A stretch of DNA of 64,000 bases from Patescibacteria group bacterium (GTDB taxonomy: Bacteria > Patescibacteriota > Saccharimonadia > Saccharimonadales > JAZKJC01). Every line of letters starts with the position of its first letter. The stretch's first letter is position 1. This document shows, one piece after another, positions 6,756 through 37,740 of the stretch. The notes under the pieces are model-generated. The model ran no database searches. It had not been told where the DNA came from and was given only the letters and a program-made list of their open reading frames with translations. Position numbers and translations under genes: made by a program. Location of the stretch: positions 7,113-71,112 of the forward strand of contig JAZKJC010000010.1 in the NCBI GenBank assembly GCA_040384565.1, written 5' to 3'.

Positions 6756-6830
6756 TGGCTGGGGAGGAGGGATTCGAACCCCCGAATGCCAGTACCAAAA
6801 ACTGGTGCCTTACCACTTGGCCACTCCCCA
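6756..6830 (-). tRNA. tRNA-Gln (anticodon UUG), CCA encoded
   Basis: Minus strand: TGGGGAGTGGCCAAGTGGTAAGGCACCAGTTTTTGGTACTGGCATTCGGGGGTTCGAATCCCTCCTCCCCAGCCA. It has a 7-bp acceptor stem, anticodon stem CCAGT/ACTGG with loop TTTTGGT, and T-loop TTCGAAT. It is close to the E. coli tRNA-Gln layout. Confidence 0.9.
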
Positions 6831-31538: not shown

Positions 31539-32072
31539 TTACTGTCCTATGGCTTCGGCGCGCGCACTCAAAACGTTCAGTACGCCCCTAACATTGCCGG
31601 CCATAACGTTCATAAAGCCACTTAGTGGCGCTGCGATAGTCCCAACCAACATGCCACGTAGCTGTTCTTTGCTTGGCAAACTTGCCAGAGCTTTTACATC
31701 ATCGGCACCAATGAAGCTACCATCTGCCGTAATTGCGCCAACAAACTGAATTGTTGGCTGCGTCTTGGCAAAAGTTGCCAAAATTTGTGCCGGAGCAACT
31801 TCGTCCTCGGTGTTAAAGGCATATAAAAGCATGCCCTCTAGTGCGCTAGTATCAGTTGTTTTGGTTAATTCATTAGCCTGCAAAGCCTTGATTACCAGAC
31901 GGTTTTTAACAACTTGTACTTTTGTACCGTTGTCTCTAGCCTGTCTGCGCAGTGCTTGCATAGCTTTGACGGGTGTACCTTGATAAGCTGCCACAACAGT
32001 CAGCTTGGAGCTGGCCAATAGTCCTGCCGTTTGGGCGACAACCTCGTCTTTTTTCTGCTTAGTTAATGCCAT
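31539..32072 (-). CDS. rplJ: 50S ribosomal protein L10
   Basis: 177 aa. Family-typical N-terminus (KKDEVVAQTAGLLASSKLTVVAAYQGTPVKAMQALRRQAR) and position upstream of rplL. Confidence 0.9.
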   Translation of the reverse strand: MALTKQKKDEVVAQTAGLLASSKLTVVAAYQGTPVKAMQALRRQARDNGTKVQVVKNRLVIKALQANELTKTTDTSALEGMLLYAFNTEDEVAPAQILATFAKTQPTIQFVGAITADGSFIGADDVKALASLPSKEQLRGMLVGTIAAPLSGFMNVMAGNVRGVLNVLSARAEAIGQ

Positions 32073-32373
32073 GTGTCTCCTTCCAGTCGAATTTTCAGTT
32101 TTCAGTTATCAATTTTCATTACTGAAGATCAAAAACAAATCTCTGAATTCGACACATTGTCTTGCAACCTCGACCTGGGTTGATTGTCGTTACCAATAAA
32201 AAAGCCCTTGGTTTTATCCAAAGACCAGTGAAGTTTACAAATTTTTAGTTAACAGCTATAAGCTAACTGCTAACCGCTAAATTGCTGCCTCGGCGACATT
32301 ATCAAGCCTTTTTACAGACCGTCGCTGTCTTTGGTAACAAATATATGCTACCAAAGTAGTCTGTGACTGTCAA
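32073..32373 (-). promoter_or_regulatory. rplJ promoter and long structured leader (possible L10-leader-type attenuator)
   Basis: Minus strand: TTGACA (32373..32368), 17 nt, TAGCAT (32350..32345). The roughly 265-nt leader contains the hairpin CTTTGGataaaaCCAAGG followed by GCTTTTTTATT (about 32196..32226). It also contains two blocks of 7-nt tandem motifs (32250..32285 and 32093..32120). Confidence 0.4.
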
Positions 32374-32400: not shown

Positions 32401-32829
32401 TTACCACTCCATCTGTAACAACTGGTAGCCGAACAATATCCGCAGGTAATGCAGGGCGTAGTTCGGCATGCTCCTTGGGAAACTGCTTTGCGGATGTAAA
32501 TACTGTTTGAGGTAGTCAAACACTGTCTCAATCTTCGGTCTGCGTCTCAGTAGTTTAAGACGGCTTTTGGTAAGTAGTTGTTTTTTGTTGTTTGTAGTGT
32601 GGCGGAACCACAAAGACAGTACCCCATAAGTGGTTTAGCTTCTTGTGTAAGGCGCTGCGGTAACCACTGTTACCAACCGCCACCTTGAAGCCGTAATGTT
32701 CACCCTGGTGGTTGTAGCCCCCCTAGCGACTTTATGCCAACGCCTGCGGACAAGTCGGCAGACTTCTAGTATGGTCGAGTCCATAAAACAAAGCCATGCT
32801 TCACTGGCGAGCAGGCTGTTTAATACCAA
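32401..32829 (-). pseudogene. IS982-like transposase remnant (frameshifted, N-terminally truncated)
   Basis: Two ORF fragments: ...FMDSTILEVCRLVRRRWHKVARG... and ...RRRPKIETVFDYLKQ...FPRS...LFGYQLL. They match the middle and C-terminal patterns of IS982-type transposases as I remember them. No intact ORF and no inverted repeats were identified. Confidence 0.5.
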
Positions 32830-34121: not shown

Positions 34122-34142
34122 GATCTCTTTCCTTTCTAATTA

Positions 34143-34170
34143 AAACGCCCCGCTGGTGCGGGGTCGTTTG
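34143..34170 (-). terminator. Hairpin terminator/attenuator between 34271..34504 and 33513..34121
   Basis: Minus strand: ACGACCCCGCaccaGCGGGGCGT followed by TTTAATT. It lies only about 20 nt before the next start codon. Confidence 0.5.
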
Positions 34171-34270
34171 TGTAACAAAAGTAAACTACCCGCGTCTCAG
34201 AGAGTAAGAATAATCACTTCTGTTACAGTTTTGTACATAATTTATATAGTGATCCCAGGGCTAGCTTTTG

Positions 34271-34504
34271 TCAAGCGGGCAGTGATGCCATCCATTCATT
34301 CACTTCGGGTGCTTTATCAGGCTCGGTTCCGCTTTCAGCAGCAGAACCCACATAATCTACGCCGCTTCTTCTAGAAATAACTACAGCTTTAACTACAAAG
34401 TTCGGACTCGGCTCGTCATGGACTGGGATAACATCTGCTACCAGTTTGCCTGGCTCGTTACTAATATCAATTAATGCTCCTACCTGTCTACCTAATTCTG
34501 CCAT
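34271..34504 (-). CDS. Small hypothetical protein downstream of a riboswitch-like leader
   Basis: 77 aa with AAGGAG RBS. No motif recognised. Confidence 0.5.
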   Translation of the reverse strand: MAELGRQVGALIDISNEPGKLVADVIPVHDEPSPNFVVKAVVISRRSGVDYVGSAAESGTEPDKAPEVNEWMASLPA

Positions 34505-34705
34505 TTCAACTCCTTAAATATTAAAAAATAATCAGGTGGTGAAGCCTGATTGGTTATCTGTTAGCTGTGCTGATGTCCGCTGCAAACGGATCAGGCTTCA
34601 ATCATAGTGAAGCACAGCCCTGATAGGCTGAGTAGGAGCAAGTCCAAGTTGCGCTTCAAAATTCTCATTAAGACTGAATGTACTCCACTCTTGTATCTAT
34701 GTCAA
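34505..34705 (-). promoter_or_regulatory. Promoter plus about 165-nt leader with mutually exclusive terminator/antiterminator helices
   Basis: Minus strand: TTGACA (34705..34700), 17 nt, TACATT (34682..34677). Terminator: AATCAGGcttcaccaCCTGATT + ATTTTTT (34523..34552), directly before the RBS. Its right arm, tgaagcctgat on the plus strand (34540..34550), is also perfectly complementary over 11 nt to 34590..34600. That partner can in turn pair with 34607..34612. Confidence 0.55.
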
Positions 34706-34731: not shown

Positions 34732-35046
34732 CTATGCGAATATTTCCTGTAAAATCCCAATGAGATTATTTTTTTCGGGTTGGCTTAAAGAGCCAATTTT
34801 ACTCGTCAATCTCTGTTTGGCTACTGATCGCATCTGGTCGCATGCTGCCGAAGATAATTTTCCGGTTGATTTAATAGTTAAACGAAATGGCCAATCAATT
34901 ATGGTAGATGTTAGCGGAACTACTATTACCGTATTAACTGTACTATTCATTATGTCTGGCGAAACTACTATGCAGGGTCGTGTCTTTTTCATTTCGCTGC
35001 CTTTTGTAGGGTTTAGATCAGTCCAGTAAATATCGAACTGCTTCAT
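34732..35046 (-). CDS. mazF: MazF/PemK family toxin (endoribonuclease)
   Basis: 104 aa. MKQFDIYWTDLNPTKGSEMKKTRPCIVVSPD is a family hallmark. Confidence 0.85.
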   Translation of the reverse strand: MKQFDIYWTDLNPTKGSEMKKTRPCIVVSPDIMNSTVNTVIVVPLTSTIIDWPFRLTIKSTGKLSSAACDQMRSVAKQRLTSKIGSLSQPEKNNLIGILQEIFA

Positions 35047-35303
35047 ATGCCGTCATCTAGCGTAATATCCCATTCATCAAGTTCGGGATCAGGCTTGGTG
35101 GCTTTAGGGTTTCCCCGCAATACTTTAGCAATTTGTTTAGCCCAACCTGAGCGTGGCTGTTTGGTACCGTGTAAAATTATTTTGCCCTGTTTAGCCTCAA
35201 TCTCGACAGTGTCCGTCAAGCCACTCATAGCGAGCATGGTTTTTGGCAAGCGAACGGCAGTGCTGTTTCCGTCTTTGATCAGTTTGGCTGTGATAGTTGC
35301 CAT
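35043..35303 (-). CDS. mazE: AbrB/MazE/SpoVT-type antitoxin
   Basis: 86 aa. The swapped-hairpin motif KDGNSTAVRLPKTML. Overlaps mazF by 4 nt. TACAAT lies 9 nt upstream of the ATG. Confidence 0.8.
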   Translation of the reverse strand: MATITAKLIKDGNSTAVRLPKTMLAMSGLTDTVEIEAKQGKIILHGTKQPRSGWAKQIAKVLRGNPKATKPDPELDEWDITLDDGI

Positions 35304-35349: not shown

Positions 35350-37740
35350 TCATCTGGGATTTGGGTGCTTCGCTACGGCATCTTTATCCAATTTTTCCAG
35401 CTTGTATTGAGTAGCTCTCTCGGCAGCTAGACGGGAGAGTTCCGGGTCTTCACCCTGATTTACGAATTTCATGGCTTCAGCCATCATGGGGTGGACTTCG
35501 CCCAACTTTTCGTGCATTTGTTGTACTAATTTGCGATAACCGGGGTGCCCCTGCGGGCTGGTCCGTAGTTCATGCAGGTGGAAAGCTTCTCTGGCATTGT
35601 AGGTAACTTTCCAGCGCATTTTGTGGCCTAAAAGCGTGGCGTATTGTGCTTCTAACTCAAAACCAGCCTCTTGCAACTGGCTGTGAAGCGCCAGGCTGAT
35701 GTCAAAGCATTTTTCGAACTGCTCGCTTAATCCAGCTTCTTCTACTAATTTGGACATTTCATAGCCGTAGCGAGGGGTCAACAGCTGCCACTGCATATCA
35801 TCTACCATCCTGTGGCGTTGAAGATCACGAAAGATGCCGTAATCACACATCAAATCCCAGCTGTAGTGGGCTTTTTCAATAGCTCTGCCTGGCCGGTGCC
35901 TGCGATTGAGACGTTCGCCAATGTATGCCGTAAATACTTCCTCTTTTTTGCTGATCGGCCACTTGGCTACTTGTGTCTGCACGCCTTTTAGTGGCAAATT
36001 GCTGTGTTCGTAGAGCATATCAGGAACAAGATCTAGCTCATTACGTGGCCAGTAAGACACAAGCTGGACTGCTTCGCTAGCATCAGCGTGTTTATCGCTT
36101 AAGTGCTTTTCTGCTAAATCACGGACCGTCTGCCGTGTATTGGCGTTATAGGCAATTGTCGCTCCGCCACGATCGGGCTTGTCGGCTCGTTCCAAAAATG
36201 TTGGCACTACTTTGCGTGCTTCAGCGAGCATTTGTTGCCCAGTAGCACGAGCTTCCAGCATATCGTCACTCAATAGATGCATAATAAGGCTTTCAAGTGC
36301 TTGACCGGAGGCAAAAATGCCAACGGTAGACTTTGTAGCTACAGGCAGCACTGGCCGGATCGCATCACATGCTTGAGCACGAGTAGCACCCTGCCAGGCA
36401 ATGTCTTGCTCTTCCTTTGGTACATCTGCTTTCTCACGTACATATTTGGTAAGTTTATGTACCATATCGGAATACAAGTTAAATATTTCATCTATAGAAT
36501 GTTCGTACAAAACTTTAGTCTTTTGGTCAAAATTGGTAGGGGTATAGTATTTGTACTTGCCGTCCTCATCTTTCTGGTCATAAAAAATATAGCGGGTGGA
36601 TTGTTCTAAGTAGGCTGCCAAACGTCCCCATTCTAACTTTTTAGTTAATAAGTTACTGGCGGCTTCTACGACTATATATTCGCCAACCAACTGTTGGACT
36701 GAATCGTCGCCGTAGGCTGTTATGACGCGTTGCAGCAATTTTTCGTCTTTGCCCAGTGCCCCCGCAAACTCGTCCAAAAGAGTCACCCGCATATCATCGC
36801 CGCGTCTAGATAACCTCGCCATGGCGGCAGCAATGGTTATTGGGCTCAACTTTTCGTAAAATCCATAAACATTTCCGGTGGTGTTGGTGACGCTTTCCTC
36901 TAAAAATTTCTGGCCAACAGCAGTAATTTTGTAGCCATCTTCCGTTTTCTGAATATATGGATTGTTGGCTTTGGTAACCGATGGTGCCTGCGTTGTCTTA
37001 AGCTCACTGCTCACCGCTCTTTGCTCATGGCTGCTAGTCTTATCAGGCAATAGCGGCTCCACGGCTTGCCACAGTAAACTATGAACAGTGTCTGCATCCA
37101 AGAGCTTACCGGCTCTTATGCAGTCAATGATGGCAAAGTCTTTTGGAAATAGTTGGCACATAGTTTCATAAACTTCAACCGAACGTTTCATGTGCTCAAT
37201 ATCGGCTTCGTGAATATCGCGCTTATTGTCCGTATATTCGCGTTTTTCTTTCTTATCAACCAACCCCTGAGCAATTTCGGCTGGCACACGTAAAACAATC
37301 GAGCGGTCAGGCCGTGGTATTTTAAGAACTTCAAATTCCAGGTTTTCATTCCAAAGGAAATAACCGCGACGATGTTCAGCGTGGTTAAACTTGGCCCCTT
37401 GATGGGCCATATTGCTGCCGGTATAACGGTTAGTGATAACAATTTTACCTGACTCTAGTGCCTCGCGTATTGCGGGAGCTGCCTGGTACCTGTCAAGAGC
37501 GTAAAATAACGAAGCCGTGTAAGGCCCAACCTGCTCGGCGGTTCCGTACGCCCCGTTCAAATACTCTTTGACGAAATATGAGGACGGTAGGTCGTACTGC
37601 GGAAAGTCAAACACGGCGACATCGTAGCCGTCGTTCTTGAGCCGTTCAACGAGTTTTTTGAACTGCGTGGTTTTGCCTGAACCGTCTGTTCCTTCGATGG
37701 CTATAAGCGTACCTTGGGCTCTTGGCGCTTGCTTGCTCAT
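35350..37740 (-). CDS. tmk-thyX: Fusion: thymidylate kinase (N-terminal) + long-form FAD-dependent thymidylate synthase ThyX (C-terminal)
   Basis: 796 aa. The N-terminal roughly 235 aa carry IAIEGTDGSGKTTQ and a Tmk-like body. The C-terminal roughly 530 aa carry ThyX hallmarks (LEQSTRYI...; FRDLQRHRM). Confidence 0.8.
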   Translation of the reverse strand: MSKQAPRAQGTLIAIEGTDGSGKTTQFKKLVERLKNDGYDVAVFDFPQYDLPSSYFVKEYLNGAYGTAEQVGPYTASLFYALDRYQAAPAIREALESGKIVITNRYTGSNMAHQGAKFNHAEHRRGYFLWNENLEFEVLKIPRPDRSIVLRVPAEIAQGLVDKKEKREYTDNKRDIHEADIEHMKRSVEVYETMCQLFPKDFAIIDCIRAGKLLDADTVHSLLWQAVEPLLPDKTSSHEQRAVSSELKTTQAPSVTKANNPYIQKTEDGYKITAVGQKFLEESVTNTTGNVYGFYEKLSPITIAAAMARLSRRGDDMRVTLLDEFAGALGKDEKLLQRVITAYGDDSVQQLVGEYIVVEAASNLLTKKLEWGRLAAYLEQSTRYIFYDQKDEDGKYKYYTPTNFDQKTKVLYEHSIDEIFNLYSDMVHKLTKYVREKADVPKEEQDIAWQGATRAQACDAIRPVLPVATKSTVGIFASGQALESLIMHLLSDDMLEARATGQQMLAEARKVVPTFLERADKPDRGGATIAYNANTRQTVRDLAEKHLSDKHADASEAVQLVSYWPRNELDLVPDMLYEHSNLPLKGVQTQVAKWPISKKEEVFTAYIGERLNRRHRPGRAIEKAHYSWDLMCDYGIFRDLQRHRMVDDMQWQLLTPRYGYEMSKLVEEAGLSEQFEKCFDISLALHSQLQEAGFELEAQYATLLGHKMRWKVTYNAREAFHLHELRTSPQGHPGYRKLVQQMHEKLGEVHPMMAEAMKFVNQGEDPELSRLAAERATQYKLEKLDKDAVAKHPNPR

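Follow-up and report, generated by a model that had tools for sequence, protein, structure and literature searches.

Leader peptides have been described upstream of actinobacterial ilvB and leuA/leuS (Seliverstov et al. 2005, PMC1262725), as has a uORF (upstream open reading frame) motif of Corynebacterium ilvB-II (Narunsky et al. 2023, PMC10272879). The Corynebacterium ilvB-II and ilvB-OMG motifs, initially catalogued as structured RNAs, have since been reinterpreted as uORF attenuators (PMC10272879). For the ilv-leu genes of Staphylococcus aureus, Kaiser et al. 2018 (PMC5794164) report a Leu-rich leader peptide that represses the branched-chain amino acid (BCAA) synthesis genes by attenuation. 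The present analysis concerns a promoter and leader at positions 34505-34705 of a 64,000-nucleotide stretch of DNA from a Patescibacteria group bacterium of the Saccharimonadales (contig JAZKJC010000010.1, positions 7,113 to 71,112), which is referred to as the window. The promoter, the ~165-nt leader, its terminator, its 11-nt antiterminator and its enclosing and competing helices all lie on the minus strand, and the leader extends up to the ATG, at 34504, of a gene for a 77-aa protein. A preliminary description had taken the leader for a riboswitch-like element. We conclude, with a probability of roughly 0.8, that it is a ribosome-mediated (leader-peptide), leucine-codon-sensing transcription attenuator, and confidence in the mechanistic details is lower than in the mechanism class. 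The element belongs to an RNA family of more than 100 members, absent from Rfam 15 but of a known attenuator kind, in a candidate-phylum lineage.

The leader family and its upstream open reading frame

The window sequence taken singly could not establish function, because its folding statistics are weak (z = -0.94 for the minimum free energy (MFE) and z = -0.45 for a second single-sequence statistic) and about one 11-mer complementarity with no more than one mismatch is expected by chance per window. To collect relatives, two distinct words of the conserved core were used to scan public collections. One returned 3 Saccharibacteria genomes and the other at least 120 metagenome contigs, and removal of 6 false matches in high-GC coding sequence left at least 104-106 non-redundant elements. 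A covariance model (R1), constructed from 97 elements (alignment A5), scored members at 57-123 bits and recovered as members three copies that lack the GGCTT..A word (L044, L065 and L079). In the window it identified a sole copy at 34526-34664 on the minus strand (70.1 bits, E = 3.5e-17). A 1.3-kb contig (L002) carries the same order as the window of thyX, leader, small gene, second leader and a homologue of a 202-aa gene. The leaders of the window and L002 are ~93% identical and the coding sequences that follow only ~55-60% identical. It is this conservation, in the face of only 58% identity between the downstream proteins, together with the covariance match, that raises the element above chance level.

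The preliminary description could assign the leader to no known class. Rfam 15 returned nothing in the window leader, whether searched at the gathering threshold or with the limit relaxed to E <= 10. Among 17 family loci searched at the gathering threshold, L10_leader was the only family matched, and nothing relevant was matched at E <= 10 in the ilvB-linked member L021. Leu_leader, ilvB-OMG, other Rfam leader-peptide families and T-box accordingly had no match in the leader, the 17 loci or L021. A search of the literature on attenuators, leader peptides and riboswitches in Saccharibacteria, Patescibacteria and TM7 found no description of the element.

The leader contains a uORF of 25 codons, in which six Leu codons fall within the ten codons up to the dipeptide GL. 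Its ATG lies 8 nt after the -10 box of the TTGACA-17 nt-TACATT promoter, which is present where the preliminary description had placed it (34705-34677, minus strand) and matches the consensus at 10/12 positions. Most of 101 relatives possess TTGACA-like boxes 17 ± 1 nt from the -10 box, and in 70/101 elements the ATG follows the best -10 hexamer by 5-11 nt (mode 7). No space remains between the -10 box and the ATG for a Shine-Dalgarno sequence. Translation of the uORF therefore most likely proceeds on a leaderless mRNA, and the window transcript probably starts essentially at the uORF AUG.

Across the family, the uORF frame is free of stops over the 14 codons before an invariant GGG in 106/106 elements, compared with 20/106 and 65/106 for the other two frames. 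An in-frame ATG is found 36-63 nt upstream of the GGG in 102/106 elements and a stop 7-12 codons beyond it in 100/106. A 3-nt periodicity is evident over the ten positions upstream of the GGG, with second codon positions nearly always T (entropy of 0.3-0.9 bits) and third positions free (1.5-1.8 bits), a profile typical of coding sequence. The Leu codons vary synonymously among relatives (CTA/CTC/CTT/TTA). The peptides share the consensus M-[SV]-F-N-x-x-K-Q-x-[ILV]3-L-[GS]-L-x-GLCF-x-M-V-E-A and extend for 0-4 residues beyond it. Two copies bear on the 3' half of this sequence: in L018 a change of GLCF to GLRF compensates RNA pairing, and in L005 the reading frame across the RNA segment termed 3a (see below) is shifted with the RNA sequence retained. 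The 3' half of the peptide is thus constrained mainly as RNA, and the hydrophobic run as codons.

The identity of those codons follows the downstream pathway. Pfam searches of the first gene after each element identified 7 HMGL-like/LeuA-type synthases, 4 pyridoxal phosphate-dependent threonine-dehydratase-like proteins, 2 acetolactate synthase large subunits and 1 RidA. At a distance of one or two genes downstream there are additional ilvB and ACT small-subunit genes, as well as genes for PALP and RidA. All 8 elements linked to leuA-like genes are of Leu type, for example LLLLGL (8/50 versus 0/55, Fisher p = 0.002), and elements with at least four Ile codons (IIIIPII) go with threonine-dehydratase-like genes (3/6 versus 4/99, p = 0.003). 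The four elements linked directly to ilvB, of the ilvBN pathway, carry the Ile/Val/Leu mixtures IVVISIL, IAVIVL, VIIIVL and LIIVL. Such a match between codon run and regulated pathway is the hallmark of classical attenuation. One ligand bound by an unvarying RNA scaffold cannot account for codons that change in step with the pathway. The window copy is of Leu type, and the 77-aa protein that it would regulate has no Pfam family or known link to leucine.

Alternative helices and the position of the ribosome

The pairing elements noted in the preliminary description are all present, and the terminator, antiterminator, anti-antiterminator and enclosing helix on which its attenuator logic depended are kept in more than 100 relatives. 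One word and its complement recur five times along the leader, as UGAAGCA in segment 1, UGCUUCA in segment 2, UUGAAGCC in segment 3a, GGCUUCAA in segment 4 and GAAGCC in segment 5 (Table 1). These form a chain of pairings, 1:2, 2:3a (helix P1a), 3a:4 (the antiterminator) and 4:5 (the terminator), such that the five segments are predicted to yield four mutually exclusive helices reusing UGAAGC/GCUUCA. The antiterminator consists of 11 exactly complementary base pairs between UGAAGCCUGAU (34600-34590) and AUCAGGCUUCA (34550-34540), and in P1a GCUUCA (34613-34608) pairs with UGAAGC (34600-34595), the alternative partner of 3a already described. The outer 8-bp helix P1, formed by GCUGUGCU (34618-34611) and AGCACAGC (34571-34564), is also exact, and P1 (GGGCUGUGC with GCACAGCCC) closes a domain holding 3a and the hairpin P2. 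The intrinsic terminator, with its 7-bp stem and U6 run at 34551-34523 on the minus strand, ends 18 nt before the 77-aa gene. What had been read as a thiamine pyrophosphate riboswitch-like motif, CCUGAUCCG, is the end of the antiterminator arm together with the start of the sequence-variable hairpin. An inner helix of the MFE fold, CUUGG/UCAGG, was dropped when two substitutions in L002 were found to break it.

Pairs were counted on a MAFFT alignment that had been fitted to no structure. P1 is 99.3% paired in the family alignment, and its 3' arm shows 65 one-sided changes, all to G-U or U-G, against 6 unpaired cells. In the terminator stem, 4 pairs are changed on both sides, giving 68 such cells (e.g. 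AU 35, UA 30 and GC 5 at one pair), a value reached by 0/500 shuffles; slid controls lowered the paired fraction to 30-48%. The antiterminator core is invariant in the alignment, and its flanking pairs show a few double changes. MAFFT columns were unusable for counting pairs in P2 because its registers vary, and this helix was instead assessed by folding each sequence, which showed that 96/97 elements (96 distinct sequences) form a hairpin of 4 bp or more, with a mean ΔG of -6.0 kcal/mol compared with -1.3 kcal/mol for shuffles. The P2 stem is CCGUU/AGCGG in the window and CCGG/CCGG in L002, and in helix 1:2 a G·U pair of the window becomes A-U in L002. Joint changes were also found in diverged members. 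In L018 (10009-10141), recovered independently of the search patterns, GGGCUGCGCU occurs with AGCGUAGCCC, a compensatory change from U-A to C-G in P1 that accompanies the GLCF to GLRF substitution; in L079, 3a is GCCCG and segment 4 is CGGGU; and in a pair of diverged relatives on L031, UGGAGC/GCUCCA has replaced the usual words of 3a and of segments 4 and 5 alike. Comparison with relatives thus upheld the structural logic of the preliminary description, in that the leader is conserved and the terminator covaries, but not its riboswitch reading; the outcome that it had named as refuting that reading, a short leader peptide that explains the attenuation, is the probable one here.

The effect of a translating ribosome was modeled by masking a footprint from -15 to +12 nt relative to the A site and computing partition functions. 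For the window leader, an A site placed on any of codons -5 to +2 (CUA CUC AGC CUA UCA GGG CUG UGC, of which four are Leu codons) gave a predicted antiterminator probability of 0.93-0.99. This probability fell to 0.2 or less with the A site past codon +2 or at the stop and was no more than 0.43, usually no more than 0.2, at earlier codons. Averaged over the family, the predicted probability of the terminator was 0.83 without a ribosome and 0.95 with a ribosome at the stop. The two full-length states of the window RNA are nearly isoenergetic (-38.2 and -36.5 kcal/mol, 1.7 apart), and in the fold of the nascent RNA, before segment 4 is synthesized, 3a is locked in P1a/P2. In 93/97 elements the stop of the uORF is found 0-9 nt past 3a, either within the P2 loop or at the foot of that hairpin, and a terminating ribosome would therefore cover 3a.

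The following minimal scheme can be proposed. Transcription would start at ~34669/34668, essentially on the uORF AUG, and the 25-codon ORF would be translated as a leaderless message. With no ribosome present, or with an unhindered run to the stop, 3a would be unavailable, being either locked in P1/P1a/P2 or covered by the terminating ribosome, and segment 4 would then pair with segment 5 and RNA polymerase would terminate at the U-run. When charged Leu-tRNA is scarce, the ribosome would stall on the Leu codons of CUA CUC (AGC) CUA (UCA GGG) CUG and cover segment 2, which would block P1 and P1a and leave 3a free to capture segment 4 in the 11-bp antiterminator, allowing read-through into the gene. 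The default state or unimpeded translation would thus lead to termination, and a stall on the last Leu codons to read-through; the direction of the response and the exact stall window are predictions of the model.

Several points weigh against this scheme. The transcription start site, translation of the uORF and dependence on leucine are all deduced from sequence. The invariance of segments 2 and 3a is ascertained rather than observed, because the search patterns fixed both sequences, and covariation there rests on a few pattern-independent copies. The paired fraction of helix 1:2 over 96 sequences is only 78%, and no covariation is possible in this helix. The family-average probability of the antiterminator predicted by the model is modest, reaching 0.36-0.41 at the best codons (-1 to +1), and the model predicts that a stall on more upstream hydrophobic codons favors termination. 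The gene regulated in the window is not a leucine-biosynthesis gene, the 77-aa protein being without assigned function. Finally, the attenuator-like leaders of Streptomyces ilvB and leuA did not behave classically when mutated (PMC1262725).

Of the other explanations, the one that survives best is a translation-sensing attenuator that is not specific for leucine and responds to general translation capacity, to a ribosome-targeting antibiotic or to the efficiency of leaderless initiation, as in the erm, cat and ABC-F leaders or the rli53 type. Initiation on leaderless messages is condition-dependent, most members (the window copy included) control non-biosynthetic small proteins, and the C-terminal half of the peptide is conserved, all of which would fit such a sensor. 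However, that conserved half coincides with RNA pairing segments, the Leu/Ile/Val codon type fits the pathway wherever the pathway is recognizable, and the Pfam survey of family loci revealed no resistance-type gene among those downstream, such that this explanation is considered unlikely.

Less probable still is that the small ORF encodes a functional hydrophobic micro-protein (membrane, type I toxin-like or signal-like), or that the ~145-nt terminated transcript is a small RNA, with the terminator acting as a leaky gene end. The peptide does resemble a signal sequence or transmembrane segment, with a basic N terminus, a hydrophobic core and a VEA end, the unit has its own promoter and terminator, and a mazEF module lies immediately upstream. 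Against this, the hydrophobic residues switch among Leu, Ile and Val with the downstream biosynthetic gene, the substitution in L018 with its compensating RNA change and the altered frame of L005 over a preserved RNA sequence both point to constraint at the RNA level, the L002 locus keeps the leader without mazEF, and the conserved antiterminator would have no role.

A metabolite-binding riboswitch, in which the P1/P1a/P2 three-way domain would be an aptamer stabilized by ligand to favor the terminator and the small ORF would be incidental, is highly improbable: although the junction inside P1, with its conserved nucleotides and a distal hairpin of variable sequence, has the look typical of aptamers, and the terminator and antiterminator would make a standard expression platform, Rfam contains no aptamer family for the leader, the 17 family loci or L021, the conserved positions are explained by the four mutually exclusive helices and coding constraint, 106/106 copies keep an intact ORF whose start and stop are fixed in position and whose stop is on the antiterminator arm, and the amino acid type of its codons varies with the pathway on an unchanged RNA scaffold.

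Table 1. Positions of the promoter, leader and regulated gene in the window
Feature	Position	Strand	Basis or remark
-35 box, TTGACA	34700..34705	-	Consensus scan; identical in L002, with spacer not conserved
-10 box, TACATT	34677..34682	-	Consensus scan; aligned box in L002 is TAGATT
Leader-peptide ORF (uORF), 25 codons + TGA, MRILKRNLDLLLLSLSGLCFTMIEA	34591..34668	-	ORF list; family-wide frame conservation
Segment 1, UGAAGCGCA	34650..34658	-	Pairs with segment 2 (34616-34608) as helix 1:2; MFE folds
Segment 2, GGGCUGUGCUUCA	34608..34620	-	Pivot; partner of segment 1, 3b (P1) or 3a (P1a)
Segment 3a, UGAAGCCUGAU	34590..34600	-	Antiterminator 5' arm; holds uORF stop (34593-34591)
Hairpin P2, UGAUCCGUU-UGC-AGCGGACAUCA	34572..34593	-	Sequence variable, structure conserved
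Segment 3b, AGCACAGC	34564..34571	-	P1 3' arm (anti-antiterminator); P1 encloses 3a and P2
Segment 4, AUCAGGCUUCA	34540..34550	-	Common to antiterminator (with 3a) and terminator (with segment 5)
Intrinsic terminator, AAUCAGG (34551-34545), 8-nt loop, CCUGAUU (34536-34530), A + U6 (34529-34523)	34523..34551	-	
Shine-Dalgarno of 77-aa gene, AAGGAG	34510..34515	-	GGAG-like boxes at the same place in relatives
Regulated gene, 77-aa protein ending ...EWMASLPA, without Pfam family	34271..34504	-	ORF and Pfam; LPA end found in 13 other small ORFs behind the element

Regulated genes and neighboring features

The 77-aa protein had been called an orphan, but an exhaustive HMMER search revealed one true homologue, P0003 (85 aa, 58% identical), encoded on L002. 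A word-indexed search found no homologues of either the 77-aa or the 202-aa protein. Insertions and deletions relative to L002 are all multiples of 3, and the 77-aa ORF is therefore probably a real gene. A match to a 5507-aa repeat protein, P0002 (E = 1.5e-16), was set aside as most likely spurious, the score being summed over 12 near-identical repeats that are each 31-36% identical to the 77-aa query over ~40 residues.

At most loci, that of the window among them, the first gene after the element encodes a small, fast-evolving protein of 45-130 aa without a Pfam family, and these proteins have a high content of Pro, Ala and Glu and a low content of Ile, Leu and Lys. The presence of an L10 gene within two genes in 20 loci indicates that the cassette typically lies between rplA and rplJ. 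The C-terminal pattern of the 77-aa protein, [VI]xY[AGV]G...E...LPA, is common to ~14 small proteins encoded after the element. Because a jackhmmer search from the 77-aa protein against 231 downstream ORFs found only the L002 protein, the link to the other LPA proteins is one of short motif, with no statistical connection at the profile level. Among the first ORFs after the element in 69 loci (e.g. L004, L022, L058, L105 and L114), 17/69 small ORFs have a TGA stop that forms part of TTGAC(A), which serves the following promoter as its -35 box. Of the first small ORFs, 14/69 end in LPA, and three of these have a different stop context, which shows that LPA does not arise solely from the overlap with the promoter but is a motif at the protein level.

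Immediately after the 77-aa gene lies a second attenuator-like unit (34122-34274, minus strand), which is conserved in L002 and has a fold z-score of -5.2. Its promoter comprises TTGACA (34274-34269, containing the stop of the 77-aa gene), a 17-nt spacer and CACTAT (34251-34246). An ORF of 13 codons, MYKTVTEVIILTL (34238-34197), begins 7 nt past CACTAT and is followed by a long hairpin and a GC-rich terminator (34163-34148) just before the ribosome-binding site of the 202-aa gene; pairing is possible between GCGGG, located after the ORF, and CCCGC in the terminator arm. Tandem arrays of attenuators and small genes were also observed in other contigs (L018, 10009-10561; L031, 5255-6696; L081, 7592-7688; L003, 2990-3084). 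Some units of these arrays have diverged to UGGAGC/GCUCCA words or to unrelated GC-rich terminators, and each has its own Ile/Leu/Val-rich mini-ORF. From the arrays, the design appears to be used repeatedly in these genomes.

A mazE/mazF pair (34732-35303, minus strand; Pfam PemK_toxin, 2.6e-28) is situated 5' of the attenuator promoter, ending at 34732, between it and thyX. In L002 (600-630) mazEF is lacking, and the thyX stop is followed directly by TTGACA, a difference that reflects insertion or loss of a toxin-antitoxin module. An 11-mer, GGATCAGGCTT, occurs both in the leader (34588-98) and at the 3' end of mazE (35086-96), probably by chance. Derivation of the leader from a duplicated mazE 3' end was likewise rejected, as L002 has the leader without mazEF. 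The C terminus of the 77-aa protein, TEPDKAPEVNEWMASL (34271-34330), resembles the tail of the MazE-like antitoxin, TKPDPELDEWDITL (35043-35100), with a pairwise E of 0.004, again probably by chance.

Further upstream, a gene at 35350-37740 (minus strand; L001) encodes a 796-aa thymidylate kinase-ThyX fusion within a nucleotide-metabolism block (HIT, DNMK and DCD) inserted between rplA and rplJ, and a RelA/SpoT gene lies between rplK and rplA. On the other side, two colinear ORF fragments at 32401-32829 (minus strand) gave weak, sub-threshold matches to the DDE_Tnp_1_3 transposase (E = 0.016 for the N-terminal part and 0.007 for the C-terminal part) and have the appearance of a degraded insertion sequence that separates the orphan genes from the L10 leader. 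Rfam located that L10_leader at 32189-32352 (minus strand, 48.6 bits), upstream of rplJ (31539-32072), and a tRNA at 6759-6830 (minus strand, 64 bits).

Significance and comparison with known attenuators

Attenuation coupled to transcription and translation appears to be widespread in the Saccharibacteria/Patescibacteria, whose regulation is almost unknown, and to rely on a single modular scaffold that is given Leu, Ile or Ile/Val codons. Genes marked by the element are probably induced in uncultured episymbionts at BCAA shortage, among them many for small proteins without assigned function beside the ribosomal L10 operon. The element also provides an example for those who search for RNA motifs, as a leader with the look of a riboswitch that on comparison is read as a uORF attenuator. 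A more speculative proposal, which we regard as doubtful, is that the cassette is a re-codable amino acid sensor with which Saccharibacteria, besides controlling a few retained BCAA genes, switch on arrays of small, fast-evolving, starvation-induced effectors (ribosome-associated or host-directed) when charging of Leu-, Ile- or Val-tRNA falls. If so, falling tRNA charging in an episymbiont would signify a failing supply from the host, the effectors would include the [VI]xY[AG]GxE...LPA group, of which the 77-aa protein is a member, at the rplKA-rplJL junction, and the set as a whole would constitute a regulon of the candidate phyla radiation that has not been seen before.

The S. aureus ilv-leu peptide belongs to another organism and has no sequence relation to the window element and controls a biosynthetic operon. 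The ilvB-OMG motif of Rfam resembles the present family in being metagenome-derived, upstream of ilvB and equipped with an in-frame start and stop that delimit BCAA-rich peptides (PMC10272879). The two families are nevertheless distinct, because the Rfam model misses the ilvB-linked members both at the gathering threshold and at E <= 10.

With the actinobacterial leaders and Corynebacterium ilvB-II, the Saccharibacteria element shares BCAA-rich uORFs that overlap terminator-forming structures, which in those systems lie upstream of ilvB or leuA. The Corynebacterium ilvB-II and ilvB-OMG motifs are the closest parallels, having moved from structured-RNA or riboswitch candidates to uORF attenuators in the same reinterpretation as is made here for the window leader. 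By contrast with the actinobacterial and Corynebacterium leaders, the present family is of another sequence family and lineage (Saccharibacteria/Patescibacteria), is much larger and is mostly not linked to ilv or leu genes.

The enterobacterial leu, ilvGMEDA and ilvBN attenuators (Leu_leader, RF00512, and its relatives) share with the present family a short leader ORF with many codons for the cognate amino acid and overlapping alternative hairpins that end in an intrinsic terminator. In them the position of the ribosome selects between antiterminator and terminator, as is proposed here, and the stop of the leader peptide likewise lies near the antiterminator arm. The Saccharibacteria element differs in having no sequence or covariance-model similarity to them (Rfam), in a uORF that is apparently leaderless and without a Shine-Dalgarno sequence, and in its five pairing segments with the extra enclosing helix P1 and the variable hairpin P2. 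It differs further in that the copy in the window controls a small protein without assigned function, and in that one scaffold is reused in Saccharibacteria with codon runs of Leu, Ile or Ile/Val type.

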